Notes: a model not told the origin generated them from the letters alone. Positions 2,061-55,347 are shown, counted from the first letter of the stretch. The stretch is DNA of 64,000 nucleotides from a virus (IMGVR_UViG_3300031133_000383:250635-314634), one strand, 5' to 3'. Numbers and translations: made by a program.

Positions 2061-2777
2061 ATGAATAAAATAAAGTTAATTATTATGTTTATTTTATCTC
2101 CTGCTTTACATTTTTTTATTTTTAGTATTTTTTATATTCATAAAGAAATTAATTCTATTTATAGTTCTTTCAATCCACTCAATAATGATCTAGTTTTTTC
2201 CATAGCTAATATGTTCAAATTAGTTTTTTTTGTATTAACCCTATTTATTATTTTAAATATATTTTTTAACATATTTAAAATAATCCTGCTTCATAGGATA
2301 TTTATAACATCATCAAATGATTATAAAAAAATACTAGTTTTTTTTATTTTATGGATATTTTTGTCATGTTTATCCTTGTTTTTTTATTTAAAAGATGGTT
2401 TATATGTGATTATTTTTAGTCTTGCATATGGTTTTTGTATTACAATTTGTATTAAAATAAGCATCCATTCATTGCATATGCATAATATTGATAAACGATA
2501 TTCTAATTTTATTAAATTTATTCCAATAAGTTTTCTTGAGCAAGACGTTTGCTTTTTTTGGCGTAATAATCGAATAGGCATTGTTAGCATAGAAGGTATG
2601 ACTGATAGAGGGATGCTTGATAAAATAATGATTAATAACAGAATAATTGATTATATAATGATTGATAACAAGATGGTTGATTATTCAACTGTACAGAAGT
2701 TTGAGCATATTTTTAGAAAAGAGATTCCTTTTTTCAATAATGAAGAATTGGATACTGTACTGATGTATTGTCATTAA
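2061..2777 (+). CDS. Multi-pass membrane protein with shared C-terminal motif
   Basis: SD GGAG; several hydrophobic segments; ends TVLMYCH. Confidence 0.6.
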   Translation: MNKIKLIIMFILSPALHFFIFSIFYIHKEINSIYSSFNPLNNDLVFSIANMFKLVFFVLTLFIILNIFFNIFKIILLHRIFITSSNDYKKILVFFILWIFLSCLSLFFYLKDGLYVIIFSLAYGFCITICIKISIHSLHMHNIDKRYSNFIKFIPISFLEQDVCFFWRNNRIGIVSIEGMTDRGMLDKIMINNRIIDYIMIDNKMVDYSTVQKFEHIFRKEIPFFNNEELDTVLMYCH

Positions 2778-2874
2778 TCCCAACTATTATTAACCGATCA
2801 TCTTCTATCAATAAAAAATGATGGTCGTCTACTTTTATTTGTGTTATAATACCCTCAATTAAAAGGAGCGGTCA

Positions 2875-3312
2875 ATGAAAAGTGTTATTTTATTTCTAGA
2901 TTTTGATGGTGTATTCCATCCTTTGATGGGCAGTGGCCTTAAATTTATTGATCTCCCTAATTTTGAAAATGTTATTCGTCAATACAAAGATCGGTTTGAT
3001 TTTAAACTGGTCATTAGTAGCACTTGGCGTCGTGAGTATACACTTTCTCAAATGTCCAAGTTCTTTTCCCCGGATATTGCGATGTTGCTGGTTGGTGTTA
3101 CGCCTGTCATCAATACTATTGGTGATGGTGTTCGTTACGAAGAAGCTCAACAATGGCGTGCTCAGAACGATATGAATTCGGATTGGATTGCCATTGATGA
3201 TGACCATTATGCGTGGAGTCGTGTGGAGCAGCTTGTTTGGTGCCATGATAAATTTCAAGAGAGAGAAGTAGGCATATTGCAATCTCAATTAAATAAAATA
3301 GAGATTATTTAA
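2875..3312 (+). CDS. HAD-superfamily phosphatase (Swiss Army Knife RNA-repair-like HAD domain)
   Basis: FLDFDGV motif I, ISSTWR motif II, VGVTP, WIAIDDD motif IV. Confidence 0.8.
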   Translation: MKSVILFLDFDGVFHPLMGSGLKFIDLPNFENVIRQYKDRFDFKLVISSTWRREYTLSQMSKFFSPDIAMLLVGVTPVINTIGDGVRYEEAQQWRAQNDMNSDWIAIDDDHYAWSRVEQLVWCHDKFQEREVGILQSQLNKIEII

Positions 3313-3313
3313 A

Positions 3314-3787
3314 ATGATTAAGCCCACACTTCTTATCTTTTTAGATTTTGATGGAGTGCTTCATTATTTCTTTCCAAAAGCTGGAATTCCAGATGAAGAC
3401 AATAAATTTTTTGCATTGATTCCCAATTTTGAAACTGTAATTAATCGCTATAAAAATCAAGTTGATTTTAAAATTGTTATTTCAAGTTCTTGGCGAGAAA
3501 TCAAAACTATTGCAGAACTGAAATCTCCATTTTCAATGGAAATTCAGAAACTTATTGTGGGGATTACACCGATTCATTTTGGAAGTGGCACTGGAAGTCG
3601 CTTGAAAGAATGTGAGATGTGGATGCAGCAAAATGAATACACTGGCAATTGGATTGGTATTGATGATAATCTGGACATTTGGAATTATCATCAAAATGTT
3701 GTTTTTTGTGAAGATGGTTTATTTAGCAACGAAATGAATGTTTTTTCTCAATGGTGTGAATCTATTATCAATAAGGAGTCCTTATGA
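3314..3787 (+). CDS. HAD-superfamily phosphatase, tandem paralog
   Basis: FLDFDGVLH, ISSSWR, VGITP, WIGIDDN. Confidence 0.8.
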   Translation: MIKPTLLIFLDFDGVLHYFFPKAGIPDEDNKFFALIPNFETVINRYKNQVDFKIVISSSWREIKTIAELKSPFSMEIQKLIVGITPIHFGSGTGSRLKECEMWMQQNEYTGNWIGIDDNLDIWNYHQNVVFCEDGLFSNEMNVFSQWCESIINKESL

Positions 3788-4266
3788 AATATAATGTTCA
3801 AATGATTTCAATTCATCAAATTATGCCGAATATTTCTCGTTCAACTTCATTAAGTTTAATTATGAAACCAACTTCTATTTTCTGTAGACCGTTTAAAAAA
3901 AATGAATACATTGAATTTTCTATTTATAATCGAAACGATGATGACTTGATAGAAATTCGTCCTTTTTCGGCAAAAGCTGATTACACTTATGTTGAAAAAT
4001 CTTTACTTGAAGCAGCTTTCAAAGCTGATAAATGTGTTGTTCTTTGTTTGAAAGATTCTGATGAAGTTGTTTTTGTTCCCTATGCTGATATTTCATGGCT
4101 GCTGTATGGAAAACATACTGTCCAATTCACACCTCATTATTTCGGCAAATCGGGATTGTTTAAAATTGTTGTAGATCATGACTTAATTTCATCTGTTGAT
4201 ATGCATAAAGTAACTTACAAGTCTTTTGAAGATATAGTTAACCTTAGTGATATTTCTCCTTTCTGA
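3784..4266 (+). CDS. Hypothetical protein
   Basis: SD AAGGAG, 4-nt overlap with upstream gene. Confidence 0.6.
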   Translation: MKYNVQMISIHQIMPNISRSTSLSLIMKPTSIFCRPFKKNEYIEFSIYNRNDDDLIEIRPFSAKADYTYVEKSLLEAAFKADKCVVLCLKDSDEVVFVPYADISWLLYGKHTVQFTPHYFGKSGLFKIVVDHDLISSVDMHKVTYKSFEDIVNLSDISPF

Positions 4267-4359
4267 CGTTTTAAAATTTTGTATCAAATCTTTACAAGTT
4301 ATTGTATATCTATACTGTAAATGCTATAATCTTATTCAAATCATATAGGAGTTTCATCC

Positions 4360-5088
4360 ATGCTTAAAACGTTGTCATATGCTGTTGCCTTTGCAACCAT
4401 TTTTCTAACAGGATGTGATCAAAAAGAATATCAAACACCAGCCGAGCGGGGTGTTGGCAATTCTAGTCAGTCTGTTCAAGAACCATCTTCTCAATCTAGT
4501 GTAACAGTGGAAGAAGAAAATGAATTGAAAGCTCTTGTTGCTGATATGAAGTCTAAAGATCCAACCATCGTTGATGCTTATTACAGTGTTGGTGAAGATG
4601 GGCAAAAAATTCTAAACGTAGTCAAAGAAGACGAAAAAACTGCAGGTAGTGGAAGTGAGGCTTCTGGTAGCAGTGGTTTGAGTACATTTATGTGGGCTAT
4701 GGCTGGTGGGTTGACTGCTAATGCACTGTTTAATGCATTTTCCAATAATCGTGGTAATATGAGTGCTGTTGCTAATCAATATAGACCAATGAATACAAAT
4801 CGTACAAGTTATTCAGGTTATACTGCTCAAAAACAGATGGCACAGTCTGGATATCGTGGTTCAATTGACCCAAACAAGTTTCAACCAAAAAGGTCAATCG
4901 ATACGAGTAAAAAATTGACACCAGTGACGAAAAATTCCAATAACGTGCGTCCACTCTCACAAGATGCTTATCGTAATACATCAACTCGACCTGTGGAAAC
5001 TCGTGTCATTCAAAAACAATCGACATCGAGCTATAGTAAGCCAAAACCTAGCATATTTAAACGTAGTACATTTGGTCGTCGTCGTTAA
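4360..5088 (+). CDS. Putative lipoprotein with Ser/Arg/Lys-rich tail
   Basis: Signal peptide with lipobox LTGC; low-complexity basic C-terminus ending STFGRRR. Confidence 0.7.
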   Translation: MLKTLSYAVAFATIFLTGCDQKEYQTPAERGVGNSSQSVQEPSSQSSVTVEEENELKALVADMKSKDPTIVDAYYSVGEDGQKILNVVKEDEKTAGSGSEASGSSGLSTFMWAMAGGLTANALFNAFSNNRGNMSAVANQYRPMNTNRTSYSGYTAQKQMAQSGYRGSIDPNKFQPKRSIDTSKKLTPVTKNSNNVRPLSQDAYRNTSTRPVETRVIQKQSTSSYSKPKPSIFKRSTFGRRR

Positions 5089-5102
5089 ATCCATCACAAA
5101 TT

Positions 5103-5131
5103 AAAAGACCTACTTCGGTAGGTCTTTTTTT
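5103..5131. terminator. Bidirectional Rho-independent terminator
   Basis: AAAAGACCTAC-TTCG-GTAGGTC-T7 between convergent genes. Confidence 0.85.
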
Positions 5132-5864
5132 ATTTCAATTTTAGTTTTGATAACATACAAGATTCTTCCAATGCTTCAGGCTTATCTTTATATTTGTACC
5201 CTAAGTGCTCTAATAGATCAATCATGTCTTTAATGGACAATTTCTTTGTATAATCATTTGTACGTATTTCAAAATGATACTCATCTATTTTATCAAAGTA
5301 ATCTGGTAACATTTCTTGCAATATATCACTCACATACAGATCAGGTTCTGAATCCAAACTGTCATAAAACCATATACAAAATGTACTTTCTGATCCTCTA
5401 AATCCATTATTACCGATCATAGGCGTATCCAGTCCATTAACAATAAATTTGGCTTCATTACCGTAAGACATGTCAGGGAAGTAGAAATAAAATTCATTGG
5501 CTACTTTTATTTTATCCGTTTGATTTAACTTCTTGGTTTCTTCCATAAACTTTTCCATTACATCGCCATTTTCGTCATTTTCAAGACGCTTGATGTTTCT
5601 TCTTAGAAAGGTTTTAGCATTGAATTCTTTTGAACCTTCTTTTTCAACAGTTTTCGCAACAATATTATCTTGATTAATTATTGAAAGCTCACCATTTTTG
5701 TTTTCTATAATAAAACAGTTGTCATGACCTTTAATAGAAAACTCTCTCATCACATCACCATTACCGTCTTTATATTTTCGTTCCCGTTTAATATTGACAG
5801 TAGAGGTAAGACCAAACTGCTCTTTGATAAAATTTTTGCAATCTTCGGTTGTAATTTTACTCAT
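5130..5864 (-). CDS. Hypothetical protein
   Basis: 244 aa ORF with SD GGAG. Confidence 0.65.
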   Translation of the reverse strand: MSKITTEDCKNFIKEQFGLTSTVNIKRERKYKDGNGDVMREFSIKGHDNCFIIENKNGELSIINQDNIVAKTVEKEGSKEFNAKTFLRRNIKRLENDENGDVMEKFMEETKKLNQTDKIKVANEFYFYFPDMSYGNEAKFIVNGLDTPMIGNNGFRGSESTFCIWFYDSLDSEPDLYVSDILQEMLPDYFDKIDEYHFEIRTNDYTKKLSIKDMIDLLEHLGYKYKDKPEALEESCMLSKLKLK

Positions 5865-6012
5865 ATAATAACTCCATTTTGGCCTTTATAATAGCATAAA
5901 ATATGAGAAAATGTCAAATTAATTATGTTATAACTGTTTTTATTGATGGCATGTCAATATTGAAATATTTTTTTATCATGTTACTTTATATAATTAATAA
6001 AGGTATTATATT

Positions 6013-6840
6013 ATGGGCGGAATGGTTTCAATTTTAGCAAGATTTAGCGATAATATAAAAATTTCATTCAGAATATCAACAGGTTGCATTAATTCTTTTC
6101 ATGATTTAGATTTACTCGATGAGAATAAATTTAAAGCTCATATAGAAAAAGAACACTATTACATAAATGAAGAAGTCACTGATGAGCATCATCAAGATTA
6201 TTATAATGCACGCTGTTTCTTTGCTCCCACTGACTATGGTCTTTTATTTTTCGACTTCAAAGAAAAATATGTGTGGTCTAGTAATAATTACAATGCATTT
6301 TTCTTGTTAAGTACTTGGTTGATTAAGTCTCAATATTCATACCTCGCTGATATTCTATCACTTAGTAACGAAACAAAAGAAACCTTGACTGTATCCGAAT
6401 GTGCTTTTGTAAATGGTCAAATTTTGACTACAAAAGAATATCATTTTCTTGCAGAGTACTCTGAACATTTCAGTTCCTTGTTCTACATTCAACAAGTCAT
6501 CGATAGAAAAGGCACGTTTAAATATAAAAAAAATATGCTACCCAGCACATTGAATGATCTCTATTCAGTATTGGCTTACATTACAGGGGAAGACTTACTG
6601 ACAGAGGCATCATTGAAAAAAGGTCCACAAAGATTGCAATTTATGACCCTCACTATGGATATGTATGATATGGAAGCTATTATTCCTGACTGGTCTTTTC
6701 ATAATTTGGATGGTTGTTATAACGCCATACAATCTGTTTTTGATTATGTTCAACAGCACAATATTTTGAGTGAACGAGATGCACATTACTGGCATGTTTA
6801 TTTAGCTGCAAAAAAAGATTTCGAAAATCAAGAAAACTAA
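6013..6840 (+). CDS. Hypothetical protein, paralog of 881..1669
   Basis: Starts MGG; FAPTDYGLLFFDFKEK aligns with RPVDYGIVVVDFIQK. Confidence 0.7.
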   Translation: MGGMVSILARFSDNIKISFRISTGCINSFHDLDLLDENKFKAHIEKEHYYINEEVTDEHHQDYYNARCFFAPTDYGLLFFDFKEKYVWSSNNYNAFFLLSTWLIKSQYSYLADILSLSNETKETLTVSECAFVNGQILTTKEYHFLAEYSEHFSSLFYIQQVIDRKGTFKYKKNMLPSTLNDLYSVLAYITGEDLLTEASLKKGPQRLQFMTLTMDMYDMEAIIPDWSFHNLDGCYNAIQSVFDYVQQHNILSERDAHYWHVYLAAKKDFENQEN

Positions 6841-6849
6841 CTCTATTTG

Positions 6850-6878
6850 TTGAAAAAACAGTCTACATGTGATATAAT
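6850..6878 (+). promoter_or_regulatory. sigma70 promoter
   Basis: TTGAAA-17 nt-TATAAT upstream of 6900. Confidence 0.7.
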
Positions 6879-6899
6879 CCAGTAAAATATGGAATAATC

Positions 6900-7682
6900 A
6901 TGAAAACTATCAATCTACAAAATCTTATCAATGATATCTTTACTTCTCGTTATCCGAAGAGTAATTTTACACTTGATGAGGTTAATGATGTTTTTCTTTT
7001 CAAATCTTTTTTTGATAAAGACAAACAATTTGTTGACTTTACTATCAAAAATAAATCAATCACCAACATTAAAACAAACAACAAATACCTTCCAGAAGTT
7101 AAAAAACTTTTATCTATCAATAAAATGAAACGCAGTGACTTTAAAATTGTGACTGATTTTTTCAACCTTATAAGTTCAAATTCTAATTTCAACAAGATGT
7201 TTTATATTGAGAATAAATTATCCAATGATGATATGTTTTCATTCAAAAAAGAAGGTTCCTTATTTCGTTTACCTTTGGTATATCCTAGTAGTAAACAATC
7301 TTTTTTTATTACTAAAATGTCAAAAAGTTATTTTCGTTATTATTTTGAAAATAATTTTAAGATTACAAGAGATGGCAATATACTAATGGTTCCTACTATT
7401 ACTCTATTTGAACATCAAAAAAACCAACATAAATTTGCTTTCAATATTTACAATCAAACCATTTACCGTGTGCGTAAAGAATGCGTTTATTTCGAAGATT
7501 TTTTCGAAAATAACGAAGTTTTTAATGCTGCATATCATGGTGATGTCTTTGTTGATGAATACATTGATAATTATATTATCAATAGCTTTGAAGACGATGA
7601 CGATATTAAACAGCTACTGATTAGACTTCCAAGAGAACATTTATATGAAAAGGTTGAATTGCTTTCAATGTATATGATATAA
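6900..7682 (+). CDS. Hypothetical protein with shared C-terminal motif
   Basis: 260 aa; ends LLSMYMI. Confidence 0.65.
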   Translation: MKTINLQNLINDIFTSRYPKSNFTLDEVNDVFLFKSFFDKDKQFVDFTIKNKSITNIKTNNKYLPEVKKLLSINKMKRSDFKIVTDFFNLISSNSNFNKMFYIENKLSNDDMFSFKKEGSLFRLPLVYPSSKQSFFITKMSKSYFRYYFENNFKITRDGNILMVPTITLFEHQKNQHKFAFNIYNQTIYRVRKECVYFEDFFENNEVFNAAYHGDVFVDEYIDNYIINSFEDDDDIKQLLIRLPREHLYEKVELLSMYMI

Positions 7683-7709: not shown

Positions 7710-8414
7710 TTATATAACCAACATTTTCACTATTATGCCATGTGTTTCTTCATCATATTCATCTAGACTATTGACTTGAAGATGATCTTTTAAGGTGGTT
7801 TCTGTTATAAAATGATATAAATAGCTTTTTTTAACTTCATTGTATATTTGCTCAGCAATTGAAGTATCGTCATCTATTTCAATTCTACCTTCTATATCAT
7901 TGTTTTCTGATGAAAATAAGGCCCATAATTTTTTTTCTGCATAAGATGCTTTTAATTGAATAAAAAATGGTTGGCCATTCATTTTTTTTGCTGTGTATGT
8001 ACTGAGTATCACTAAATCGTTGTCTGTTAAAATAAAAAAACTTTTTGATTCTTGTAGTCTATAAACAATATATTCATTCCATATGTCTAATTTTCGAATA
8101 TCTCTGCCTTTTTCAATAAGTTGACGAACTTTTCTTCTGAATATGTCTTCATTATTAATGATTTCAGGTTGTTCTGATACTAACCATTGAATATCGGAAG
8201 GTACGTTATCATATTTAACAACTACTTCTCTCTTGTTTTGAACAATATAATAAAATTTATTTTGATAAATGATATTTTGTTTAGCAATGAATTCACCAAG
8301 AATAATTGTCTTATATGAAGGGAATTCGGCATAAATATTAATGGATTTCAAATATGAAATAATGCCAGAGTATTTTTCATTTGCATTTTTAAAAATATTT
8401 TTAAACTTTATCAT
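7710..8414 (-). CDS. Hypothetical protein with shared C-terminal motif
   Basis: 234 aa; SD GAGGGA; ends IVKMLVI. Confidence 0.65.
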   Translation of the reverse strand: MIKFKNIFKNANEKYSGIISYLKSINIYAEFPSYKTIILGEFIAKQNIIYQNKFYYIVQNKREVVVKYDNVPSDIQWLVSEQPEIINNEDIFRRKVRQLIEKGRDIRKLDIWNEYIVYRLQESKSFFILTDNDLVILSTYTAKKMNGQPFFIQLKASYAEKKLWALFSSENNDIEGRIEIDDDTSIAEQIYNEVKKSYLYHFITETTLKDHLQVNSLDEYDEETHGIIVKMLVI

Positions 8415-8923: not shown

Positions 8924-9011
8924 GGAAGATTGGCAGAGTGGTCTATTGCAGCAGTTTCGAAAACTGCAGGGTGTCAAAGCTCCGTGAGTTCGAATCTCAC
9001 ATCTTCCTCCA
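8924..9011 (+). tRNA. tRNA-Ser(CGA)
   Basis: Acceptor GGAAGAT/ATCTTCC, anticodon arm GCAGT-TTCGAAA-ACTGC, long variable arm, TTCGAAT T-loop, encoded CCA. Confidence 0.92.
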
Positions 9012-9025
9012 AGTTAAAGTTATAT

Positions 9026-9116
9026 GGTGTGTTGGTAGAGTGGTTGAATACGTCTCCCTGCTAAGGAGATAGGTCTGAAAATGGCCTCGTGAGTTCGAAT
9101 CTCACACACACCTCCA
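9026..9116 (+). tRNA. tRNA-Ser(GCT)
   Basis: Acceptor GGTGTGT/ACACACC, TCTCC-CTGCTAA-GGAGA, long variable arm, CCA. Confidence 0.92.
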
Positions 9117-9138
9117 AATTAAGTTGTAAATGTATTAT

Positions 9139-9222
9139 GGTTAGTTGGCAGAGTGGACGATTGCGGGGGACTGTAAATCCCTTCCGAAAGGCACGGTGGT
9201 TCGAATCCATCACTAACCACCA
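9139..9222 (+). tRNA. tRNA-Tyr(GTA)
   Basis: Acceptor GGTTAGT/ACTAACC, GGGGA-CTGTAAA-TCCCT, A73, CCA. Confidence 0.92.
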
Positions 9223-9245
9223 AATTTAGATGTAATGGTTTTAAT

Positions 9246-9329
9246 GGAGAGATGGCCGAGCGGTTGATGGCACCAGACTGTAAATCTGGCTCGAAAGACA
9301 CACTGGTTCAAATCCAGTTCTCTCTACCA
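9246..9329 (+). tRNA. tRNA-Tyr(GTA)
   Basis: Acceptor GGAGAGA/TCTCTCT (G1-U72), CCAGA-CTGTAAA-TCTGG, A73, CCA. Confidence 0.9.
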
Positions 9330-9433
9330 AATTAGACGTATGGTAATAAGAATTGACGCTTCTTGCAGAAGTTGTCAGGTTTAATGTAATTATTGTTATG
9401 TTATGATAATGGTTGACATCTACCCACCAATAT

Positions 9434-9521
9434 GGAAGCGTGGCCGAGTGGTTTAAGGCAACAGTCTTGAAAACTGTCGGGTGTAACAGCCCCGTGAGTT
9501 CGAATCTCACCGCTTCCGCCA
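9434..9521 (+). tRNA. tRNA-Ser(TGA)
   Basis: Acceptor GGAAGCG/CGCTTCC, ACAGT-CTTGAAA-ACTGT, G73, CCA. Confidence 0.93.
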
Positions 9522-9545
9522 AATTTAGATGTATAGCAATAAAAT

Positions 9546-9634
9546 GGACGCCTTTCCTGTCAGCGGTCTGTAAAACCGCCGCCTTAATAAGACAGGTCGG
9601 TTGGCGTGAGGTTCGAATCCTTGGGCGTCCACCA
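9546..9634 (+). tRNA. Non-canonical tRNA-Tyr(GTA)-like RNA lacking a D-arm
   Basis: Acceptor GGACGCC/GGCGTCC, GCGGT-CTGTAAA-ACCGC, T-arm with TTCGAAT, ACCA end; only 10 nt between acceptor and anticodon stems. Confidence 0.75.
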
Positions 9635-9702
9635 AATTTAGATTTATGGGAAGTATGTGCCATCATTATACTATAATTTTGGTAACTGCTGCCCACCAAT
9701 AT

Positions 9703-9790
9703 GGAAGCGTGGCCGAGTGGGTTAAGGCACTAGTCTAGAAAACTAGCGGGTGTAACAGCCCCGTGAGTTCGAATCTCACCGCTTCCGCCA
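9703..9790 (+). tRNA. tRNA-Ser(AGA)
   Basis: Near-identical copy of 9434..9521 with anticodon arm CTAGT-CTAGAAA-ACTAG. Confidence 0.88.
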
Positions 9791-10215: not shown

Positions 10216-11118
10216 TCAAATTTTTACCATTTCTAATAAGGTAAAGTAGCGTTCTAGTTCTTCGTTGGAAATATTATCCAATTCTGTTTTCTTTAAGTTT
10301 AATGATGAACACATAACAGTTTTAAGTACAATATTAAATCTACGAGAAAAATAAGTCTCTATTTGTTCATTGTCCATATTTAAGGTGTGTAAATTAAACA
10401 GTCCTTGTTTAAGCTTCTTTTCATCGTCTGTAAAATAAAGTTTGGGCTTTTCTGTCTCAGTTGTATTTATAGGAACAATACAACACATCTTAGTTTCATT
10501 GCCAAAAGGTAATTTGATTTTGAAGAATGGCTGTATGGTATTACCGACTACAATATGAATCCAGTCAACGGTAATATAAGATTTCTTAAAATTAGATTGT
10601 TGATATCCTCTGCCTTTTTGAAGCATTCGATTAAAACTCAAAAGAGACGCTTTCTTACCTTTAAATCTCAAATGTTGGCTAAAATTATCGATGCCGAAAA
10701 AGTCTTGAATAGAGCCTTCTGTCCAGAGTTCATCAGCAGAATGAATCATTTTAGATTCAACACCTGTTTTGATAAAAGAGTCTATAATCATAAAGATTTT
10801 ATCAAGATCAAGTTTGTAGGTGGCTTCAAAATAATTAGCAATAGTTCTGCTTTTTGTTGATAGGATAGATCCCATACTGCTGCCATTGGCTTTAAAGGTT
10901 ATGTCTGGATAATGATTTTTTTGATGATTTAATCCAGTTGGGAAGGTAATGTCCATTCTCCATTTATGATCATCTGTAATCGCTGTATACACAAACTCCC
11001 CTGAGCTTCCATAAACCATTTCTTTATTATCTTCATAGAAATTAGTAAACTTCATCAGGGATGAGAGTGTTTTTACAAAATGATTAGCTTCATTGTGGTT
11101 TGAGAATTTTTTGAACAT
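10216..11118 (-). CDS. Family A paralog 1 (unknown function)
   Basis: KSY.V...PF/YFKI.LP motif; SD GGAG supports second Met; ends LLEMVKI. Confidence 0.75.
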   Translation of the reverse strand: MFKKFSNHNEANHFVKTLSSLMKFTNFYEDNKEMVYGSSGEFVYTAITDDHKWRMDITFPTGLNHQKNHYPDITFKANGSSMGSILSTKSRTIANYFEATYKLDLDKIFMIIDSFIKTGVESKMIHSADELWTEGSIQDFFGIDNFSQHLRFKGKKASLLSFNRMLQKGRGYQQSNFKKSYITVDWIHIVVGNTIQPFFKIKLPFGNETKMCCIVPINTTETEKPKLYFTDDEKKLKQGLFNLHTLNMDNEQIETYFSRRFNIVLKTVMCSSLNLKKTELDNISNEELERYFTLLEMVKI

Positions 11119-11174
11119 TCCGATCTCCAAAATATTCTCAATTATAGCATATAGTATAAAAAAATGGTAGTATT

Positions 11175-12068: not shown

Positions 12069-12213
12069 AGTGGTCTCCAAAAAAAATAGTTTTTTATTAT
12101 AACATAAAATTCAAAAAGGCCAATAATTATTTGCCATATTTAAGAAATTACTATTAATAGTAGATTATATCGTCAAAATACTATAAGCTATTAAAAGAGC
12201 ATAGAGAGGTTGA

Positions 12214-13122: not shown

Positions 13123-13267
13123 CTATTGTATTTAAATTTATGGATTTCTTATAAGAATATGCTATTATAAGTATATAAGGACTATAATATGATCAATATT
13201 AATGAGATGAGAATCACTACAACCAACATTTTAAATTTATTGTTATTTATTATTGTAGTCAAATATT

Positions 13268-13621: not shown

Positions 13622-13622
13622 T

Positions 13623-14093: not shown

Positions 14094-14228
14094 AAGCACC
14101 TATTTTATAATAATTCAGGAATATTGTATAATACAGTATAGAGCATACTTATGTCAATTATTATAAAATTATTGTGAGATTTTATATATCATGCTATAAT
14201 AGCATTCTATTTTCTAGGAGCTTATCAT

Positions 14229-14630: not shown

Positions 14631-14680
14631 AATACAAATCATCTATAAAAGCTCCTTTTCAGGAGCTTTTTAATTTTTGA

Positions 14681-15805: not shown

Positions 15806-15852
15806 ATGAATGAATCCTTATTTTTAATGAGAGTATTAGCGTTATATTTTTA

Positions 15853-16758: not shown

Positions 16759-16768
16759 TATTTGTTCC

Positions 16769-17680: not shown

Positions 17681-17791
17681 AATAAACTCCAAAAGTATTA
17701 AGCTATTCTAACATACTATAAAAAAATTTGCATCATTTTTTAAATTTGCATTTACCTTATTTTCATGTGATAATGGCATCAACTAAAAAAG

Positions 17792-44448: not shown

Positions 44449-46275
44449 ATGGAATTTTATAAAAAAATTGAAGTATTTACTAATATCATTAGTGGATCAG
44501 TAAAAACCAGACGCATACAAGATAATTATATGCCTAGTGCTGCTGACAATATTCGTAATATTGAGCGTGCAAATGAAATCCGTGAGAGTTCATGGACAAG
44601 TATTATAAATATGTGTAATGGCGTGCTTCCTGATAAGTATAATGTTTTTTCAAATAGATCTATTGGGTTCAATCTGATTTCAAATAATATTGACGTAACA
44701 ATAGCCAATTTAAATACAAAATTTGTTGAATCCATTCATAAAGCTAGAGATATTTATACACAACTTTCAAAATCTCATGATATTGATTTTTCAAAACAAT
44801 TAAATCAATTGGATTTATTATCCACCAATTTTTCTTCTGATCCCGCTATAACCCATACCATTAATAAATTGTTAGAATTCAAAAAATTCTGTCATCAGGG
44901 TGAAGCAACCATTAAATCCATTGAAGCGGTTATGTATAAAGAGCAAAGAGATGTTCAACAAGGAAGAGCTTACTTTGATAATAATCTAGATACAAATCCT
45001 TACTTGAAACCTTTAAAGGATCTGTTGATTATTCATAAAGACGTTTATCAAGATTATACACCTGACAGTAAATTTTATTATGACAACAAGGTATTGTTAT
45101 CCTATTCTGATTCATTTAATTCATTGGTTAAAGAGATGTATCATCAGTTAAGAGAGTCTACTAAAATTTCTTTTTGCCAAGCAGAAGATTTCAAAGATAA
45201 CCAGTTAAAATCCAAAGCTTCTGTTTTATCTTTTTTGACTAATAAAGAAAATGAGTCAACCATAAAATATAAGCTTGAATTTGAACAATCTCGTTATTCT
45301 GAAATTTTATTCTTTAAAGATGACAGTATTATGGTTAAGGATTCTAGAGGTCACTATATTGATATTTTAGAAAACAAAGAAGTAAAAGTTATATTGGAAA
45401 CATTGATAAAAGATGAAATAAAATTTAGACTTAGAAAAACACCAACAATGTGTAAAGATTTTTTATCTATTGCTGAACCCAATCTATTTGATTGCCGCTA
45501 TTTAGAAAGCATCTTAAATACCTATCAGAACAATGAAGATATTTTAAAAACTCATCAATATAATTTTAAAAAGGCTTATAAAGAATCTGCTGACAAGTAT
45601 ACCAGTAGCTATAGAATATTGGAAAATATGAATGATACTATGCATGCTATTATTAAAGATCATAAAATACAACAGTTGGCTCATAGTATATCTAGCAATA
45701 AATACATGCATCTGTATGATGAAAAAAGTTATAAAATCGTTGAACTTATTTACGATTTAAAGATTGATGAGTCTAAATTTCAAGATTACATTGGTAAAAA
45801 AATGGCTGCTTACAAAACTACTGAGGAATTTAATACGGCTTTAAGACAATTTGTTGCGTCTCTTGATTCCTTTAATCCTTTCAACATAGAAGAAAAAGCG
45901 AACCAGTATGATGCTAGAATTATATCTTATACTGACGATATCATGATATTGGAAATTACTGATTTTGAACAAAGTACCAGTTTAGGCAGTAGTAGCTGGT
46001 GTATCTCTCGTGAAGAATCTTATTTTGAAAGCTATACTGAAAACAACAACGTACAGTATTTTATTTATGATTTTAACAAACTGTCTTCTGATAATAATTC
46101 CATGATTGGGATCACTTTGGATAGTGATGGTCTTATATATGCTGCTCATTTAAAAAATGATGATTCTGTCGAGCAAGATTCACCTGCTATCAGTCAGATT
46201 GTCGATATGATTTTTCAAGGTTGTAAAAACAAAGACACTATAACAATTGCACCAAAAAACATATTGATGCCTTAA
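44449..46275 (+). CDS. Large hypothetical protein
   Basis: 608 aa; C-terminal LGSSSWCISR...YF.YDF block typical of large-phage hypotheticals. Confidence 0.7.
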   Translation: MEFYKKIEVFTNIISGSVKTRRIQDNYMPSAADNIRNIERANEIRESSWTSIINMCNGVLPDKYNVFSNRSIGFNLISNNIDVTIANLNTKFVESIHKARDIYTQLSKSHDIDFSKQLNQLDLLSTNFSSDPAITHTINKLLEFKKFCHQGEATIKSIEAVMYKEQRDVQQGRAYFDNNLDTNPYLKPLKDLLIIHKDVYQDYTPDSKFYYDNKVLLSYSDSFNSLVKEMYHQLRESTKISFCQAEDFKDNQLKSKASVLSFLTNKENESTIKYKLEFEQSRYSEILFFKDDSIMVKDSRGHYIDILENKEVKVILETLIKDEIKFRLRKTPTMCKDFLSIAEPNLFDCRYLESILNTYQNNEDILKTHQYNFKKAYKESADKYTSSYRILENMNDTMHAIIKDHKIQQLAHSISSNKYMHLYDEKSYKIVELIYDLKIDESKFQDYIGKKMAAYKTTEEFNTALRQFVASLDSFNPFNIEEKANQYDARIISYTDDIMILEITDFEQSTSLGSSSWCISREESYFESYTENNNVQYFIYDFNKLSSDNNSMIGITLDSDGLIYAAHLKNDDSVEQDSPAISQIVDMIFQGCKNKDTITIAPKNILMP

Positions 46276-47290: not shown

Positions 47291-48517
47291 ATGAAATATT
47301 TAACATCGTTAGCCTCAAATTCCAAAAATCTTGAAGCAGCTTTTATAGCTGCCGGGTTATCAGATATTACCTATTCGTATGATTCCGATACTGTATCCAT
47401 TGGACAAAGAGACTATCCATGTTTTAAAAATTTAAACCCCTTAGTAAGTAATAATACGTTAAATCAATATCACTATTCGACAAATATTGATCATACATTA
47501 ATGATTAAGCTGTTGTTTCCACAGTTTTCATCCGGTGAATGTCGGCAGATTGGTAGTCTTTTAGATTTTCAAAAAAAATTGTTTAACCTTGGCTCATTAA
47601 AAGAAAAAGAAACAGATAAAAATAGTATTTTTATCTTGCAAAATGGAGTACTTCATATTTCTTCTTCTATTCTAGATTTTATCATTAAAAACAAAAGTCT
47701 TATTATTTCTTGGAATAATTATGATAAAAAAGAAAAACACTATAAAAAAATATCCTTTTTATCAATTTATAAACTTTTTTTAACCTATTTCAAAAATGAT
47801 ATAGAATCCTATGTTGAAAAAAGAATACCTGTTGATAAAATGGATTCTAAACTTTTTAACATGATTGCAAATGAAAACACTTATGCTTATCTATCTCGTA
47901 TATCAAAAAATAATGACTTAAAAGATTTTAAGTCTTCTGATTTATTTCAATTTTTAAAAGATAATTTACACAAAATTAGACCAATATATAAGAAAAAAAT
48001 TCCTGTTGAAAAAGGATTGTTATATATTATGGATTATCATTTATCTTATTTGGATATACCTCTATTAGATGAACAATATGAAATGCAATTTTCTTTACAT
48101 CAAGATTCTATTCATGAACAAAAATTATTTTTTAGAAATTTTCTAGAAAACGATGCGTGTAATTATTTATTAAATATATGTTCGTTGATTCAATTTAATA
48201 ATAAAGTTTTAGCAAATGAACCCTATGAGCCTATTATTACAAATATAATCCATTCTGACTATTTTTCTAAAACCGTTGTACAAAAGACCAATTTATCTCC
48301 CTTGTCTTTACAAATTGGTTTATCATCTATTAACTTTAAAAAAACACTTGAATTTACGTATTTTTTATCAGGACGATGCTATTGTTTTAAATCAACAAGT
48401 CTAAAAAAAATTTATAAAGATTTCACTGAATTTACTCAAAATGTATTAGCCTACCAGCTAGGCCGTAGAGAAGTTTCAAATATAGATTTACAACTACTTA
48501 AAATGATAAATATTTAA
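47291..48517 (+). CDS. Hypothetical protein with shared C-terminal motif
   Basis: SD GGAG; ends LLKMINI. Confidence 0.65.
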   Translation: MKYLTSLASNSKNLEAAFIAAGLSDITYSYDSDTVSIGQRDYPCFKNLNPLVSNNTLNQYHYSTNIDHTLMIKLLFPQFSSGECRQIGSLLDFQKKLFNLGSLKEKETDKNSIFILQNGVLHISSSILDFIIKNKSLIISWNNYDKKEKHYKKISFLSIYKLFLTYFKNDIESYVEKRIPVDKMDSKLFNMIANENTYAYLSRISKNNDLKDFKSSDLFQFLKDNLHKIRPIYKKKIPVEKGLLYIMDYHLSYLDIPLLDEQYEMQFSLHQDSIHEQKLFFRNFLENDACNYLLNICSLIQFNNKVLANEPYEPIITNIIHSDYFSKTVVQKTNLSPLSLQIGLSSINFKKTLEFTYFLSGRCYCFKSTSLKKIYKDFTEFTQNVLAYQLGRREVSNIDLQLLKMINI

Positions 48518-48534: not shown

Positions 48535-49110
48535 ATGTTAATTTCAAATAATATAGAACATTTAATACAGTCAATTAATGAAAGCAATTGCAGTACATTT
48601 ATTTATTCAGATGATGAGACGACGATTCCAGACACTGATATTAAAATCTTAATGTTTAGCTTATCTCAGTGTTCTAGTATTGAAGACTTAAAAACTGCAT
48701 TTGGCTTTGTACTGACGGCTTCAGTCTATAAACATGCTATAATAAAATCTATATTTTCAACGTTGCTGACAGAAAAAGAAATTGGTTATTTTATATCTCT
48801 TGTATCCTTGATAAATTTTTACAATAATTTAGTAAAAAAATCAGAACAAGATATGTTTGCTCTTTCAAAAATGCCGAGCGGATATGAAATCAGAGTTGGT
48901 TTCTCCACGATAGTAGAAGATGGAGATTATATTAAACTGACCACAGATGATTTAGATGAACATGGCGTTGAATTCAAAAATAAAACGTTTATGGCACTCT
49001 ATTACAATTATCTTCAATATATTCGAAAAGAGATTGCAGATACTATCGAGATTTCCATAGATAATTTAAATAATGATAATTTAGGTGTATTTCGAATGAT
49101 GATTGACTAG
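48535..49110 (+). CDS. Hypothetical protein with shared C-terminal motif
   Basis: Ends VFRMMID. Confidence 0.6.
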   Translation: MLISNNIEHLIQSINESNCSTFIYSDDETTIPDTDIKILMFSLSQCSSIEDLKTAFGFVLTASVYKHAIIKSIFSTLLTEKEIGYFISLVSLINFYNNLVKKSEQDMFALSKMPSGYEIRVGFSTIVEDGDYIKLTTDDLDEHGVEFKNKTFMALYYNYLQYIRKEIADTIEISIDNLNNDNLGVFRMMID

Positions 49111-49138: not shown

Positions 49139-50062
49139 TTGGGCGTCATGATAGAATACCAGCAATTAAACCAGATAGAGAATAGTATGAACATTATCGA
49201 AAACTCCCAACTTCCAGAAGTCTTGTCTTCTTTTGTAGATTATCTCAAAGAGTCTTTTCATTATGATTCAAATAGAGTTCAATATTTTGTTTCAACATCT
49301 TTGACGGCAAATGATTCGGCTTTGACGCCTATTCTTCGAAAAAAAATGAAAGCTCTCAATAATACAATTGATTTTGAGGAAATCAGGAATGAGTTGAATA
49401 CCATTGCCGCTGAGTTAGAAGAATTTTATGTAATCAGCATGATGCGTCATACTGATAATTTTGATGATACCGATTATTTCTTTGTTACTGTAAATAAAAA
49501 CAAGGTTTTTATCCATCAAAATTTTTCAACATTTGATCTTGTTGACATGTACTATTTTCGAGGAAGTGATGGAGAACTTGGAGAAGGAACTTATGTATCC
49601 AATACGCCTGTCTTTGAATCTTCTGACACCCAAAACTTTCTTTACAGATTGATGACTTATAAATTTACCTTCAATGCTACACTCAATAAGATATTGGATA
49701 GAAATTCTATTAATCAAGTTGATATTAAAAATCACAAATTGGAAGTTCAAGTTCTTTCAGGTATTCATCCATCAACTGTTGATTCAATTAATCGTAAAAA
49801 AATTCTAGATTTATTGCAACATAATTACAATGAATTTCATCCAGATAATCTTATTTTGGTTAAAATTCTCTATAAATCCGAACTAATTTATGATAAATTT
49901 TTCTATAAAGTGTCTCCACAACAAGCAGTATCTACCATGATTAAGCCTTTTAAATTGACCGATGCTGAGTATTCTCAGATTGAACGGAAGCCCACTCTAT
50001 CAAAAGAATATCTTGATGATTTTGAAGATCAGTACAAAGTTCTTGAAATGATTATGGAATAA
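49139..50062 (+). CDS. Hypothetical protein with shared C-terminal motif
   Basis: Ends VLEMIME. Confidence 0.6.
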   Translation: MGVMIEYQQLNQIENSMNIIENSQLPEVLSSFVDYLKESFHYDSNRVQYFVSTSLTANDSALTPILRKKMKALNNTIDFEEIRNELNTIAAELEEFYVISMMRHTDNFDDTDYFFVTVNKNKVFIHQNFSTFDLVDMYYFRGSDGELGEGTYVSNTPVFESSDTQNFLYRLMTYKFTFNATLNKILDRNSINQVDIKNHKLEVQVLSGIHPSTVDSINRKKILDLLQHNYNEFHPDNLILVKILYKSELIYDKFFYKVSPQQAVSTMIKPFKLTDAEYSQIERKPTLSKEYLDDFEDQYKVLEMIME

Positions 50063-51645: not shown

Positions 51646-52326
51646 ATGAAATCGCTTGATGGTGCATCACCCGAAAAGCCAGATCCTATTTTTGAAGCTG
51701 CAACAGCAAAATTAAAAAAGTTTCGTCATATTATGTCAAAAACCATTGATAAAAAATTTTCTATCAATACACATGATTTTAAATTTTATATAACCCCTGT
51801 TGTAGAAAAATATCTGATTGGTCAATCGTTTCATCATGTGTATGTTTCTCAAATTAATAATAGGGGATTCAATTTTTATATTAATATTTATAATAGTGTT
51901 CATCATGCTGATATAACTTTTACTATTCAAAACGACTACCTTAAAACCAATCTGCGTAATATTCTGGCTTTTTTTGAAACATTTTATAAAGATGTCTCTA
52001 TTGTTTATATGGCAAACTGTAAGACCAGTCGTTCAATGAATAATATTTTTTCATCATGGTTCTTGCCTGATTTAGAAGTTTATCAGTCTAATTTTAAGTT
52101 TTTTGGTCGTAATCCCATCTATAAATCAGCTTTGCCTTGGGATGTTAGTCAAAAAATCGAAATGCTTGATTTTCTAGAAGGGGATGAACTTCACTTTGTA
52201 CAACAATTTATTGATCTGTATCGTGAACATGTCATTCCTAAAGATATTTTGTTTAATTTCGACTTTACAGCACCACCAGACGATATGAGAAACTATCTTG
52301 ACATGATTAAAATGATTAAATTTTAA
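51646..52326 (+). CDS. Hypothetical protein with shared C-terminal motif
   Basis: SD GGAG; ends MIKMIKF. Confidence 0.65.
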   Translation: MKSLDGASPEKPDPIFEAATAKLKKFRHIMSKTIDKKFSINTHDFKFYITPVVEKYLIGQSFHHVYVSQINNRGFNFYINIYNSVHHADITFTIQNDYLKTNLRNILAFFETFYKDVSIVYMANCKTSRSMNNIFSSWFLPDLEVYQSNFKFFGRNPIYKSALPWDVSQKIEMLDFLEGDELHFVQQFIDLYREHVIPKDILFNFDFTAPPDDMRNYLDMIKMIKF

Positions 52327-52372: not shown

Positions 52373-53740
52373 TTATAAAATATCTTTACCCGTTCTTGTT
52401 TTATAAGACTGGTAATGGATATCTTTCTTCAACGCTTCTGCACTCATTGTATCAGCCGAGTTCAATGTATTTGTCAATGTTGAGAGCGATGCAGAAATTC
52501 GAGAGTCTGTGTAAGCTGCTCCTATATCGTTTAGCATTCCTGTAGCCCCACGAAGAAGACCTTTAGCACCTTCAAGATTACCGGCTGCAATTTGAGCACT
52601 GGCTTCCAATTTGTTTTTGGCTATAATCAACAATGTTTCCTGAATCTTAACTTCTTGATTGAATTCCAGTTTTTCCCACTTTTTAGAGCTTGTAGTAGGT
52701 AGTTCAACTGTTACAGTTTGGTTGACTTTATTACCATTTTCATCTTTGTATTCTAAATTCAATTCACCTATAACTACTTTTTCACCTGACTTTTTAGGGT
52801 ATGTTGTATCCAATTTGAACAATAATGATAATTTAGATTCTGATAGAACATTGGCTAAATGATAAACACCCTCTTTTATTTCAAAACAATTCATCTGATC
52901 GGCCACTTTGAATCCTTCATTAAGAGTCAATGTAAACTTTATTTCAGATCCTGCAATGTTTGCCATACCCGTAAATTCTTCTGCAAACATCTGGTCGAAT
53001 TCCTTTTCATCTTTGATGTAATAGAAATTGCCACCACCACTTTCAGTCATGGATTGAAGAAGATTTTCATTAAAACTGTCACCAACACCAAATGTTGAAG
53101 TGGTAATGCCACTCTTATAAAGGGCCGCTACATCAGCCGCAATTTCTTTGGAATTAGTTACACCAATACCTGTTTCACCATCAGTGAGGACCATGACACG
53201 ATTGATATATTTTTCTTTGAGATTTTTAACAACCTCAGTGGCTCCTGTTACCCAGCCTTCATGAAGATTAGTCCCACCCATAGCACGCAGACCACTAACT
53301 TTTGTAATCATTTCCAATTTACTATTGGCAGATACTTGTTTGGCATCAATTATAATTTGGGCTTTATTAGAAAACACAACCAATGATACATAATCACCAT
53401 CTTTTAAACTCTCAATGGCTTTAATTGCTGCTTTCTTGACTAATTCAATTTTTGTAATCGATGGTACATTGAAATGATTGTTTGGAAAATTTTCAAGTCC
53501 ATTAAACTGACTGTTAAATAGTTTATTTTTTAGTATTACACCGCGTTCAAATTGATTGCTTCTGCCAATATAATCAGACATTGAACCCGAAACGTCGATG
53601 ACTAAACTAAGATTAAGCTTTTGACGTTTAACCGCTTTTGAAACTTGTTTTTTCTGACCTTCAAGCTCTACCAAGAACAGAGCATCCTTGGAATTCATAT
53701 TCAGAGCGGCTTTTTCTGCTAAGTATTTAATATTGATCAT
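52373..53740 (-). CDS. von Willebrand factor A domain protein
   Basis: MIDAS DVSGS, GGTNLHEG, VLTDGE, GVG..FNE.LL..M...GGGNFYYI. Confidence 0.85.
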   Translation of the reverse strand: MINIKYLAEKAALNMNSKDALFLVELEGQKKQVSKAVKRQKLNLSLVIDVSGSMSDYIGRSNQFERGVILKNKLFNSQFNGLENFPNNHFNVPSITKIELVKKAAIKAIESLKDGDYVSLVVFSNKAQIIIDAKQVSANSKLEMITKVSGLRAMGGTNLHEGWVTGATEVVKNLKEKYINRVMVLTDGETGIGVTNSKEIAADVAALYKSGITTSTFGVGDSFNENLLQSMTESGGGNFYYIKDEKEFDQMFAEEFTGMANIAGSEIKFTLTLNEGFKVADQMNCFEIKEGVYHLANVLSESKLSLLFKLDTTYPKKSGEKVVIGELNLEYKDENGNKVNQTVTVELPTTSSKKWEKLEFNQEVKIQETLLIIAKNKLEASAQIAAGNLEGAKGLLRGATGMLNDIGAAYTDSRISASLSTLTNTLNSADTMSAEALKKDIHYQSYKTRTGKDIL

Positions 53741-53742
53741 GA

Positions 53743-54426
53743 TTATTCTCCTATTCCTAATATTTGTTTAATTTTTTCAAGAATTTCTTCTTTATTGACT
53801 GGGTTATAGTTTTGTTCCATTTTTAAGTATAGCTTTCCTGTATTATCTAAAGGAATTTCACTAAACACTTTAATGTTGTGCTTTTGTGATTCTACATATT
53901 CCAAGCTCTTTTTCATAACAGAAGATTTTTCCAATAACTCAGATCCTACGGACCTACCCAATGATCCTACTGCTCTAGGTGATTGACTGCCGCCTATCAT
54001 GAAATTAGCTGGTTGTACATTATGGTTGTTAGTGGGCATCATGGTTCTAGCTTTTATAGCTTCCAACACACTTAAAGCATCAAACTGTGCAATAGATGCA
54101 GATGCCTCACTGGTATCGTTCACCGCGTTTGAACTCATGTATGAGGTTGAAATCATATTTTTCAACATTTTTTCACCTACCCCTTCTTTTTGAAGCTCCT
54201 TGATTCCAAGAATTTGAGTGACATGAGAATCATCAAAATAGTTTTTGCGGCCTTCTTTCAGTGGACTTCCAATCATGTCTTTCGACATCCAGTCTGTGAT
54301 TTTTCGAGGTGTTACGATATCAGATACACGCCCATCTGAACTCTTTCCAATATATTTATTTTCTTCAAGTCTTTTGTTGACTTCATTCGCTAATTCATCT
54401 AATGTATAACGTTTCAGCATTACCAT
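53743..54426 (-). CDS. MerR-like HTH protein
   Basis: YTLDELA...DGRVSD..TPRKI..W...GR..YF...HV.QIL.IK.LQ.EG; translationally adjacent to vWA gene. Confidence 0.6.
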   Translation of the reverse strand: MVMLKRYTLDELANEVNKRLEENKYIGKSSDGRVSDIVTPRKITDWMSKDMIGSPLKEGRKNYFDDSHVTQILGIKELQKEGVGEKMLKNMISTSYMSSNAVNDTSEASASIAQFDALSVLEAIKARTMMPTNNHNVQPANFMIGGSQSPRAVGSLGRSVGSELLEKSSVMKKSLEYVESQKHNIKVFSEIPLDNTGKLYLKMEQNYNPVNKEEILEKIKQILGIGE

Positions 54427-54567
54427 ATTCTCCGTTGATAGATTTAATTTACATCAATTGATGTAAGTTGTCAATATATAATGTAAATTAAATTGAAAAT
54501 ACTATAATGCTATGTTATGATATTGATTTACAGCCATTTTCTAAATATAATTTATGGAGTTTGTTAT

Positions 54568-55347
54568 ATGCTTACTAATAGAACTAAAAAATTTATTAAA
54601 ACTTTTTTATTTGATACCTATGATATTTGTTGTCAGAGCATCCGTATCCCAGCAGGATTTTACTATGGTTCACAATCTTATATACTTCATTGCACTTCAA
54701 ATGACATTAAATTTCAGATGTCATTAACTATAACAATTAACCAGTCTGATATTTTCACTGATGACCAACCTCGTGATTTATCATTTAATTTAACCATTAA
54801 TCCTCTTGTTGCTAATGATGTTAAATCTTTATCAAATTTTATTCACAATCACTTATTGGTTCAACAATTGGACAGTATCAATTCTGAAAATGCAATGGGC
54901 CTGAAAGACAATCTTTCTTTGTGTATGTTTTGTAGTCACATTAGCTTGTTGTCTGGTTACATGATCAAGGACAAGGGTTGTTTCTCCGTCGAAGAATATA
55001 ATAAAGAAATTTGTATCCTTGCCGATATTTCAGCACATGAAACCTATGGACAATTTTTGAATCAAGGTTACAGGCTGTTATCAATTGGAATTGAAGGTGA
55101 AAAATTTGTTTATGAATTTTCTTGGTATGAAGGTATATCAAAGCATAAAGAAATAAACACATCCTATAATCTATCCATACAATCCGATATTTTAAAATTT
55201 AAAGGATCAGCTTTTAAAGAATATATCAACTATGCGGTTAAAAAACAACTGATAACACATTCTTATATTGAGAATTTAAGTATGGATGGGCTATCTTATG
55301 AGGAATTGTTGCAGTATCTGAAGATTCAAAAGATGTACCAAATTTAA
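54568..55347 (+). CDS. Hypothetical protein with shared C-terminal motif
   Basis: SD GGAG; ends IQKMYQI. Confidence 0.65.
   Translation: MLTNRTKKFIKTFLFDTYDICCQSIRIPAGFYYGSQSYILHCTSNDIKFQMSLTITINQSDIFTDDQPRDLSFNLTINPLVANDVKSLSNFIHNHLLVQQLDSINSENAMGLKDNLSLCMFCSHISLLSGYMIKDKGCFSVEEYNKEICILADISAHETYGQFLNQGYRLLSIGIEGEKFVYEFSWYEGISKHKEINTSYNLSIQSDILKFKGSAFKEYINYAVKKQLITHSYIENLSMDGLSYEELLQYLKIQKMYQI

Follow-up and report, generated by a model that had tools for sequence, protein, structure and literature searches.

About a fifth of the open reading frames (ORFs) of a huge, uncultured phage-like element end in the same short peptide, in which a near-invariant methionine stands at position -4, counting back from the last residue (-1). 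The window analysed here is a 64-kb stretch (bases 250,635-314,634) of a 437,043-bp virus record in IMG/VR (IMGVR_UViG_3300031133_000383), the whole of which is labelled G000; coordinates without a prefix are those of the window. The record is linear, with 31% G+C and a CheckV completeness estimate of 98%, and it is called a huge phage-like element. The terminal peptide, hereafter the tag, is a real and statistically overwhelming feature. It is proposed that the tag is an end-dependent docking helix for one shared partner, a reading to which we give slightly better than an even chance. Short terminal docking motifs read by a hub are already known as a kind; what is unusual here is the scale and the complete anonymity of the proteins that carry the motif. 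No description of the tag was found in a full-text literature search.

A methionine-centred motif at the chain end

The motif was assessed on a simple, non-overlapping set of ORFs, 80 aa or longer, that covers the whole record (528 ORFs, 73 of them in the window). Met occupies position -4 in 102 of the 528, against a Met residue frequency of 2.7% (binomial P = 1.5e-54); within the window the count is 18 of 73 against the same frequency (binomial P = 8e-13). Enrichment over background had been set beforehand as a check on the motif and is hereby confirmed, and chance is excluded as the source of the Met(-4) termini. The preliminary description of the window had listed 18 Met(-4) termini, five termini with Ile or Phe at -4 and two variant termini (22937 and 29689), all of which were recovered at the coordinates given below. 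Many of the tagged genes lie in tandem arrays of recognisable paralogs, for example the four genes of the family designated A1 at 10216-17692.

2061-2777, + strand: tagged gene, 238 aa, ending TVLMYCH
6900-7682, + strand: tagged gene, 260 aa, ending LLSMYMI
7710-8414, - strand: tagged gene, 234 aa, ending IVKMLVI; a tagged relative with 27% identity lies at L046:19210-19950
10216-11130, - strand: tagged A1-family gene, 304 aa, ending LLEMVKI; AlphaFold model with a predicted local distance difference test score (pLDDT) of 84, the tag being helix 289-303
11175-12080, - strand: A1-family paralog, ending LIEMIKI
15853-16797, - strand: A1-family paralog, ending LVEMVKI
16769-17692, - strand: A1-family paralog, ending IAEMVKL
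22937-23647, + strand: degenerate tag (RLKLANIL); paralog of 23658-24311
23658-24311, + strand: tagged gene, 217 aa, ending VAGMIDY
28034-28774, + strand: tagged gene, 246 aa, ending LKEMQAY
29689-30528, + strand: extended variant, tag-like ALMSNII followed by four more residues, EKRI
30530-31477, + strand: Ile(-4) variant tag, LIEILDF
33407-34279, + strand: Ile(-4) variant tag, LNNIIEH; position-specific matrix score high even without Met
34327-34965, + strand: tagged gene, 212 aa, ending LLEMYNE
34962-36005, + strand: tagged gene, 347 aa, ending LLDMIEY
36048-37148, + strand: Phe(-4) variant tag, VIEFFEI; probably a paralog of 37081-38283 and 39202-40227, from tail similarity
37081-38283, + strand: tagged gene, ending IVEMFEV; gene callers choose a later start, giving 370 aa
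38325-39113, - strand: Ile(-4) variant tag, LIEIIDV
39202-40227, + strand: tagged gene, 341 aa, ending VLSMYEI; paralog of 37081-38283
42136-42978, + strand: Ile(-4) variant tag, LIQILHY
47291-48517, + strand: tagged gene, 408 aa, ending LLKMINI
48535-49110, + strand: tagged gene, 191 aa, ending VFRMMID
49139-50062, + strand: tagged gene, 307 aa, ending VLEMIME
51646-52326, + strand: tagged gene, 226 aa, ending MIKMIKF
54517-55347, + strand: tagged gene, 276 aa, ending IQKMYQI

Information content rises above the small-sample baseline at positions -15 to -1, and the consensus reads [DE]-phi-phi-x-[DEN]-x-phi-x-[LIV]-[LIV]-[EK]-M-[ILY]-x-[IY]-stop (phi, hydrophobic residue), with Glu at -5 in only about 40% of the tags. 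About nine of the 102 Met(-4) termini are chance cases; some 14-22 termini with Ile, Leu, Ala or Phe at -4 score on a par with true members, and four tags have one residue added at the end. The tag family thus counts about 110-120 members, a fifth of the ORFs. Its genes are found throughout the record, occupying 21 of the 22 20-kb bins.

The tag is strictly tied to the chain end, as expected of a recognition peptide, and we regard this as its most revealing trait. Among about 117,670 segments of the proteome scored with a 12-column matrix, 93 reached at least 10 bits, and these comprise 83 that are terminal, four that stop one residue short of the end and six elsewhere. When the Met column was omitted and scoring was done leave-one-out, the threshold was passed by 59 of the 102 termini versus eight of 2,437 internal Met-centred segments. 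The closest named phage is Xanthomonas phage XacN1 (384 kb), which has matches for only 22 of the 528 proteins. Given the same treatment, it has Met(-4) in 15 of 554 ORFs, which is background, and no terminal information; it was rejected as a relative and kept as a negative control. One tagged protein, encoded at L002:16218-16997 (G000 36218-36997), ends QWKMINAMIDY, which looks like two overlapping tag cores (KMINA, then AMIDY).

It had been claimed that selection acts on the protein terminus, and the coding sequences bear this out. Position -7 alone is encoded by ATT, TTA, GTA, GTT, TTG, ATA, CTT and CTA; many codons, both synonymous and class-equivalent, are used at -7, -6, -3 and -1, with the second-position T of hydrophobic codons conserved. 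The stop codons TAA, TGA and TAG follow the tags in background proportions, and the 40 bases 3' of these stop codons hold no information. A DNA-level reading, in which the motif would be a promoter, a terminator or the start of the next gene, is ruled out by the varied codons, the three stops and the lack of downstream conservation. A k-mer enrichment (GAAGAT/AGATTT) seen upstream of tagged genes turned out to be the coding end of the preceding tagged gene. In the tag of 37081-38283 both natural variants are synonymous, an anecdotal case drawn from 40 listed of 333 differences in four sequencing runs.

Carriers, their relatives and the predicted structure of the tag

The carriers are soluble, lineage-specific and fast-evolving proteins subject to tandem duplication and to turnover between related genomes. 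They have a median length of 246 aa and a narrow range (188-313 aa from the 10th to the 90th percentile, compared with 104-421 aa for other ORFs). Only nine of 93 have an N-terminal hydrophobic segment, suggesting that most are cytoplasmic, and their composition is shifted by AT-rich codons towards F, Y, I and N and away from G, A and W. The assertion that the tag is absent from recognisable enzymes is borne out: of the 91 carriers scanned, not one has a credible Pfam or PHROG match (best E 0.0013 for Pfam and 0.00013 for PHROG, in single members and at noise level), while most of the larger untagged ORFs scanned do match Pfam.

The carriers had further been described as otherwise unrelated, which stands at the sequence level. 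At E<1e-5 in BLAST, 80 of the 102 Met(-4) proteins have no partner in the genome; in jackhmmer with the last 20 residues removed, 73 of the 102 are singletons; and in a profile-profile comparison (hhalign) of families A3 (16 sequences) and A5 (9 sequences) only the last ~30 columns align, with Prob 3%. The tight lengths, the similar secondary-structure order of two models (below) and an excess of weak matches speak against the claim; at E<0.1 there are 16 matches per 1,000 pairs among tagged bodies, compared with about 5 between tagged and untagged proteins and 5.5 among untagged ones. A gapped alignment of the last 45 residues revealed two more semi-conserved blocks: one is where a helix ends, the other a phi-x-[DN]-phi-[ST] capping box. 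It is possible that one or a few hyper-diverged superfamilies are present among the carriers. The similarity between G000 205983-206558 and 6013-6840, a tagged/untagged pair, was considered as a sign that the tag is portable, and was set aside as too weak for proof (34% over 80 aa, E = 3e-5).

The tag is retained in relatives from other samples. A hidden-Markov search with the A1 family among 1.84 billion representative proteins found 31, of which about 25 are full-length; all of these end at the same position and all but one, which has Val, possess Met(-4). Even matches as distant as E = 7e-7 and 2e-5 keep the end position. The A1 family, arranged in tagged five-gene arrays, also occurs on contigs from other samples, and more distant contigs carry other tagged families, some of them one residue longer (...LEMIKIS). 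Few segments of the A1 family are as well conserved as the tag (0.51 vs 0.29). A word-index search of a 5.8-billion-protein collection with the protein of 34962-36005 returned itself alone. A stretch of a 1.85-Mb contig is syntenic with 346-362 kb of the record, and here tagged positional orthologs share 27-49% identity versus 34-77% for their untagged neighbours. This stretch comprises 20 kb with tagged genes (L052; JGI 3300028584, contig of 1,851,360 bp, 271169-291792), and the contig may be a chimaeric assembly, a concatemer or a real replicon; 1.85 Mb is far above any phage genome known to us.

Two AlphaFold2 models predict the tag to be helical. In the A1-family model (pLDDT 84, predicted template modelling score (pTM) 0.84) it forms helix 289-303, after helices 254-277 and 281-285; in the model of a second family (pLDDT 78.5, pTM 0.78) it forms helix 198-208, after helix 170-189 and an eight-residue loop. 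In both the last 20-30 residues are less confident (64-78) than the core. The two models have in common the order helix, beta hairpins, helices, 6-8-stranded sheet, long helix, loop and tag helix. Projected on a helical wheel, positions -14, -13, -10, -9, -7, -6 and -3 would make up one broad hydrophobic face and the acidic or basic positions -15, -12, -11, -8 and -5 the opposite face, and with Met(-4), -3 and -1 the last turn would be hydrophobic all round. Searches of both models against PDB (Foldseek), AFDB clusters and ESM Atlas and with VIA-align wide gave no convincing fold (best Z 6.3 and 5.0, template modelling score at most 0.41) and no informative match common to both, a result that is not firm on the folds being new or alike. 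A profile of the last 45 residues gave no match to PDB sequences at E up to 10.

Possible functions of the terminal helix

The helix stands at a residue-exact distance from the free carboxylate in families that otherwise share nothing detectable. A structural helix would tolerate ragged ends, so a single reader is favoured. The tag would be the last 12-15 residues of a C-terminal module of ~35-45 residues, composed of the end of a long helix, a variable loop and an amphipathic terminal helix that usually opens with a Ser/Thr-x-x-Asp/Glu capping box. The chain stops exactly three residues past the near-invariant Met. We propose that this helix plugs ~110-120 different proteins into one hub, encoded by the element or by its host, and that a single reader recognises the terminal turn together with the chain end. 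The plug would be constant and the bodies variable, which is the most economical scheme and is paralleled by the F-box and PRANC adaptor families and by the clamp-binding tails of T4; the bodies may bind different targets or carry different activities, which the plug would connect to a shared machine. From the motif, its constraint at the protein level, its anchoring at the chain end, its retention in relatives, the predicted helix and the carriers' lack of known domains, all documented above, we infer partner binding, a single partner and the direction of the logic (carriers as adaptors or as cargo). More tentatively, and with some doubt, we envisage an undescribed hub-and-plug system of huge phages, in which one reader, of phage or host origin, that recognises the free C-terminus of a Met-centred amphipathic helix would serve a fifth of the genes as a diversifying library of adaptors or effectors.

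Several observations weigh against a docking helix. No partner was found: the 437-kb record has no match to PDZ_2, ClpP or the ClpX-type AAA_2, and none to a gp45-like (PF02916) or beta (PF02768) clamp, although the record is possibly a fragment and the PF02916 control matched no genome above the cut-off. The last three residues of the tag fit the class II PDZ ligand phi-x-phi-COOH, and PDZ_2, which gave no match, was the only such model tried on the record. Exact identity between orthologs and paralogs is only 0.40 in the last 15 residues compared with 0.33 in the bodies, indicating that what selection preserves is Met(-4), the hydrophobic pattern and the place where the chain ends rather than the exact residues. 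In the predicted models the tag helix may be free or may rest against the body of its own protein, and a single hyper-diverged family could underlie all the carriers, with the helix as its best-kept structural element.

This last point leads to the alternative that the carriers form one or a few hyper-diverged, lineage-specific paralog superfamilies, the helix being the best-conserved piece of their fold with no external partner or address function. Such an origin would be consistent with the tight lengths (188-313 aa), the lack of any Pfam or PHROG domain in 91 carriers, the tandem arrays of clear paralogs, the semi-conserved blocks upstream of the tag and the like order of secondary structure in the two models. 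It would also account for the excess of weak matches among tagged bodies (16 vs about 5 per 1,000 pairs), but this may stem from the AT-driven composition common to the carriers. We consider a superfamily unlikely, since it leaves the residue-exact chain end unexplained (83 terminal, 4 plus one, 6 elsewhere; identical in the ~25 A1 representatives), while the profile-profile commonality is limited to the last ~30 columns and the tag helix has a pLDDT below that of the cores. A degron, that is, a non-polar tail read by an AAA+ protease of the FtsH, Lon or ClpXP type from the host or the element, by which a class of proteins would be cleared together at a set time, is in our view quite improbable. 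The motif is strictly C-terminal with a non-polar end, and C-terminal non-polar tails (ssrA-type) are classical signals for ClpXP, Tsp and FtsH; moreover, the relative L048 has genes for an FtsH-like AAA + Peptidase_M41 protein and for a second AAA protein a few kb from tagged genes. Known C-terminal degrons, however, are short and unstructured, and here there are 12-15 constrained residues with a capping box, amphipathic and predicted to be helical. The record itself gave no match to ClpP, AAA_2 or an FtsH-type AAA, its sole AAA matches being MoxR-like and paired with DUF2201/VWA genes, and there is no known precedent for marking a fifth of a proteome for destruction.

The preliminary description had offered a packaging label, a docking motif and a degron as functions, and none of the three is singled out by the evidence; packaging or injection is the least favoured of them, with no capsid or terminase gene seen and the polyvalent-protein-type genes untagged. 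As a packaging label, the tag would do at the C-terminus what the capsid targeting sequence (CTS) of T4 does at the N-terminus, and the carriers would be loaded in the head and delivered with the DNA. The carriers do resemble fast-evolving host-interaction genes, and terminal peptides are known to load phage heads and shells, N-terminally in the T4 CTS and C-terminally in the targeting of the HK97 protease and of encapsulin cargo. We nevertheless regard this as very improbable: ~110-120 cargo species of roughly 28 kDa are far beyond any described virion content; the untagged ART-PolyVal (L001:3029-4927) and PBECR5 (L008:5138-6628) genes are of a type normally associated with proteins delivered alongside the DNA; searches of the record turned up no gene for a capsid, a terminase or a prohead protease, and its lone S49 peptidase has a SohB-type N-domain; and the tags, of which just ~40% have Glu(-5), resemble the L-x-E site cleaved in T4 only weakly. 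Least plausible of all, to the point of being far-fetched, is an uncleaved type I-like export signal read by the HlyD-type and TolC-type genes of the element. Type I substrates have uncleaved C-terminal signals, those of the protease/lipase class ending with an acidic residue followed by hydrophobic ones, and adjacent MFS, HlyD-family and TolC-like genes do exist in the record (L006:13040-17132). The inner-membrane part of this triad is, however, an MFS protein of the drug-efflux type, with no ABC exporter in the triad (ABC_tran was not searched genome-wide); neither RTX repeats nor any other hallmark of a type I substrate was seen in the carriers, and known type I signals are much less sharply defined than the tag.

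Among known systems, the closest documented phage case to the proposed docking helix is the clamp-binding epitope of T4. The T4 proteins gp43 (...EKASLDFLFG), gp33 and gp55 possess an acidic-hydrophobic C-terminal epitope that can be exchanged between them, is attached through a variable linker and docks in a hydrophobic pocket on the gp45 clamp; one structure shows the T4-type epitope as an amphipathic helix (PMC2988020, PMC6212786). Like the tag, it lies at the extreme C-terminus of otherwise unrelated proteins, is acidic and hydrophobic and is capable of forming an amphipathic helix. The RB69 polymerase tail, ...LFDMFDF, would match phi-phi-acid-M-phi-x-phi-COOH position by position. In T4, however, the carriers number three or four and all take part in known transactions on DNA or RNA, compared with ~110-120 carriers without a known domain here, a thirty-fold difference in scale, and the recognisable nucleic-acid enzymes of the record (NAD ligase, RNA ligase and a DEDDh-like exonuclease family) are all in the untagged ORF set. 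There is no support for placing the tag in the T4 clamp-epitope system: the 437-kb record yielded no clamp, none of its DNA enzymes has the tag, and the numbers of carriers are far apart.

The CTS of the T4 internal proteins IPI, IPII and IPIII is likewise an address label of ~10 terminal residues on unrelated, fast-evolving phage proteins. It is N-terminal, is cut after L/I-x-E by the prohead protease and occurs on a handful of proteins, whereas the tag is C-terminal, end-dependent and present on a fifth of the ORFs; no N-terminal motif was seen in the carriers, and the record yielded no T4-type head genes. The C-terminal tethering peptides of bacterial protease adaptors, such as the SspB XB motif that binds the ClpX N-domain, and the ssrA degrons likewise act as short peptides at the free C-terminus, in their case read by one AAA+ machine, but they are unstructured, five to eleven residues long and different in sequence, and have one or few carriers per genome compared with a hundred here. 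Encapsulin and microcompartment peptides resemble the tag as short terminal amphipathic helices joined by a flexible linker to unrelated proteins and read by one shell; their motifs differ, their cargo sets are small and made up of recognisable enzymes, and no shell or encapsulin gene was seen here. F-box and BTB expansions are found in giant viruses and Parachlamydiaceae (PMC4209131). The likeness of the tag to F-box/PRANC modules, as in the ankyrin/PRANC proteins of poxviruses, where the module is C-terminal, is one of logic only: a large diversifying set of proteins uses a small helical plug into one host machine. Those modules are domains of 40-50 residues with Skp1 as partner in eukaryotic hosts; the tag has no sequence or profile similarity to them, and its host is bacterial.

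The genes of huge phages are mostly of unknown function, and here a 15-residue signature groups ~20% of the ORFs of one genome, none of which can be named from databases. The signature predicts that all carriers converge on one partner, and finding that partner would give a cellular context to more than 100 dark-matter proteins. Such a finding could also reveal how very large phages organise host takeover, and the tag would be a ready handle for targeting reporters. If true, the hub-and-plug arrangement would either do for bacterial viruses what the F-box/PRANC strategy does for those of eukaryotes or enlarge the T4 clamp "toolbelt" to a giant scale.

Gene content and distribution of the record

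The record encodes several proteins of translation, namely GatA/GatB, seryl-tRNA synthetase, another class II synthetase and TilS. Other recognisable products include DnaK, adenylate kinase, NAD ligase, RNA ligase, an M3 peptidase, an S49 (SohB-type) peptidase, a methyl-accepting chemotaxis protein, TnpB-like proteins and the polyvalent-protein domains ART-PolyVal and PBECR5. The largest ORF is just 778 aa. No match to terminase (PF17289, PF03237), HK97-type capsid (PF05065), the capsid of nucleocytoplasmic large DNA viruses or 16S rRNA was found in the 437-kb record. Six bacterial-type long-arm Ser and Tyr tRNAs are present, clustered at 8924-9790 of the window as four Ser (cga, gct, tga, aga) and two Tyr (gta) genes; all six have a long variable arm, indicating that the Tyr genes are of the bacterial type. 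At 24445-27578, GatA (amidase, 480 aa) adjoins GatB (466 aa), and the 92-aa ORF ahead of them could be GatC, in which case a virus-like record would carry a complete tRNA amidotransferase.

Near-identical DNA occurs in phyllosphere, plant and dairy metagenomes from 17 studies, and contigs of 323 kb and 604 kb, from ENA and elsewhere, carry the same genes. RNA contigs overlap parts of the stretch, which is not proof of transcription. Neither the 778-aa protein nor the A1 alignment, when scanned against IMG/VR, brought up a relative. In the relative L048 (SRR23945768), the region 2352-7371 encodes a 729-aa AAA protein and the 946-aa FtsH-like AAA + Peptidase_M41 protein, for which no counterpart was found in the 437-kb record.

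An untagged family of ~600-aa proteins without a Pfam match is represented at 44449-46275 and by five further G000 paralogs (20688, 53903, 71916, 238249 and 326356), and it also adjoins tagged genes in two relatives (L046:17253-19199 and L048:12913-14826). Three TnpB/Cas12f-like genes (OrfB_IS605 + TNB domain) form one paralog cluster, at 58987-60630 (- strand), L014:7855-9288 and G000 421236-422648. The region G000 154405-162637 (L008, L009) contains two tandem pairs in which a MoxR-type AAA gene precedes a DUF2201 metallopeptidase-like/VWA gene, and a further VWA gene at 52373-53740 (- strand) adjoins a MerR-type gene at 53743-54426 (- strand). The neighbouring genes at L006:13040-17132 (G000 113040-117132) encode an MFS pump, an HlyD-family adaptor and a TolC-like outer-membrane factor, which together make up an EmrAB-TolC-type efflux set.

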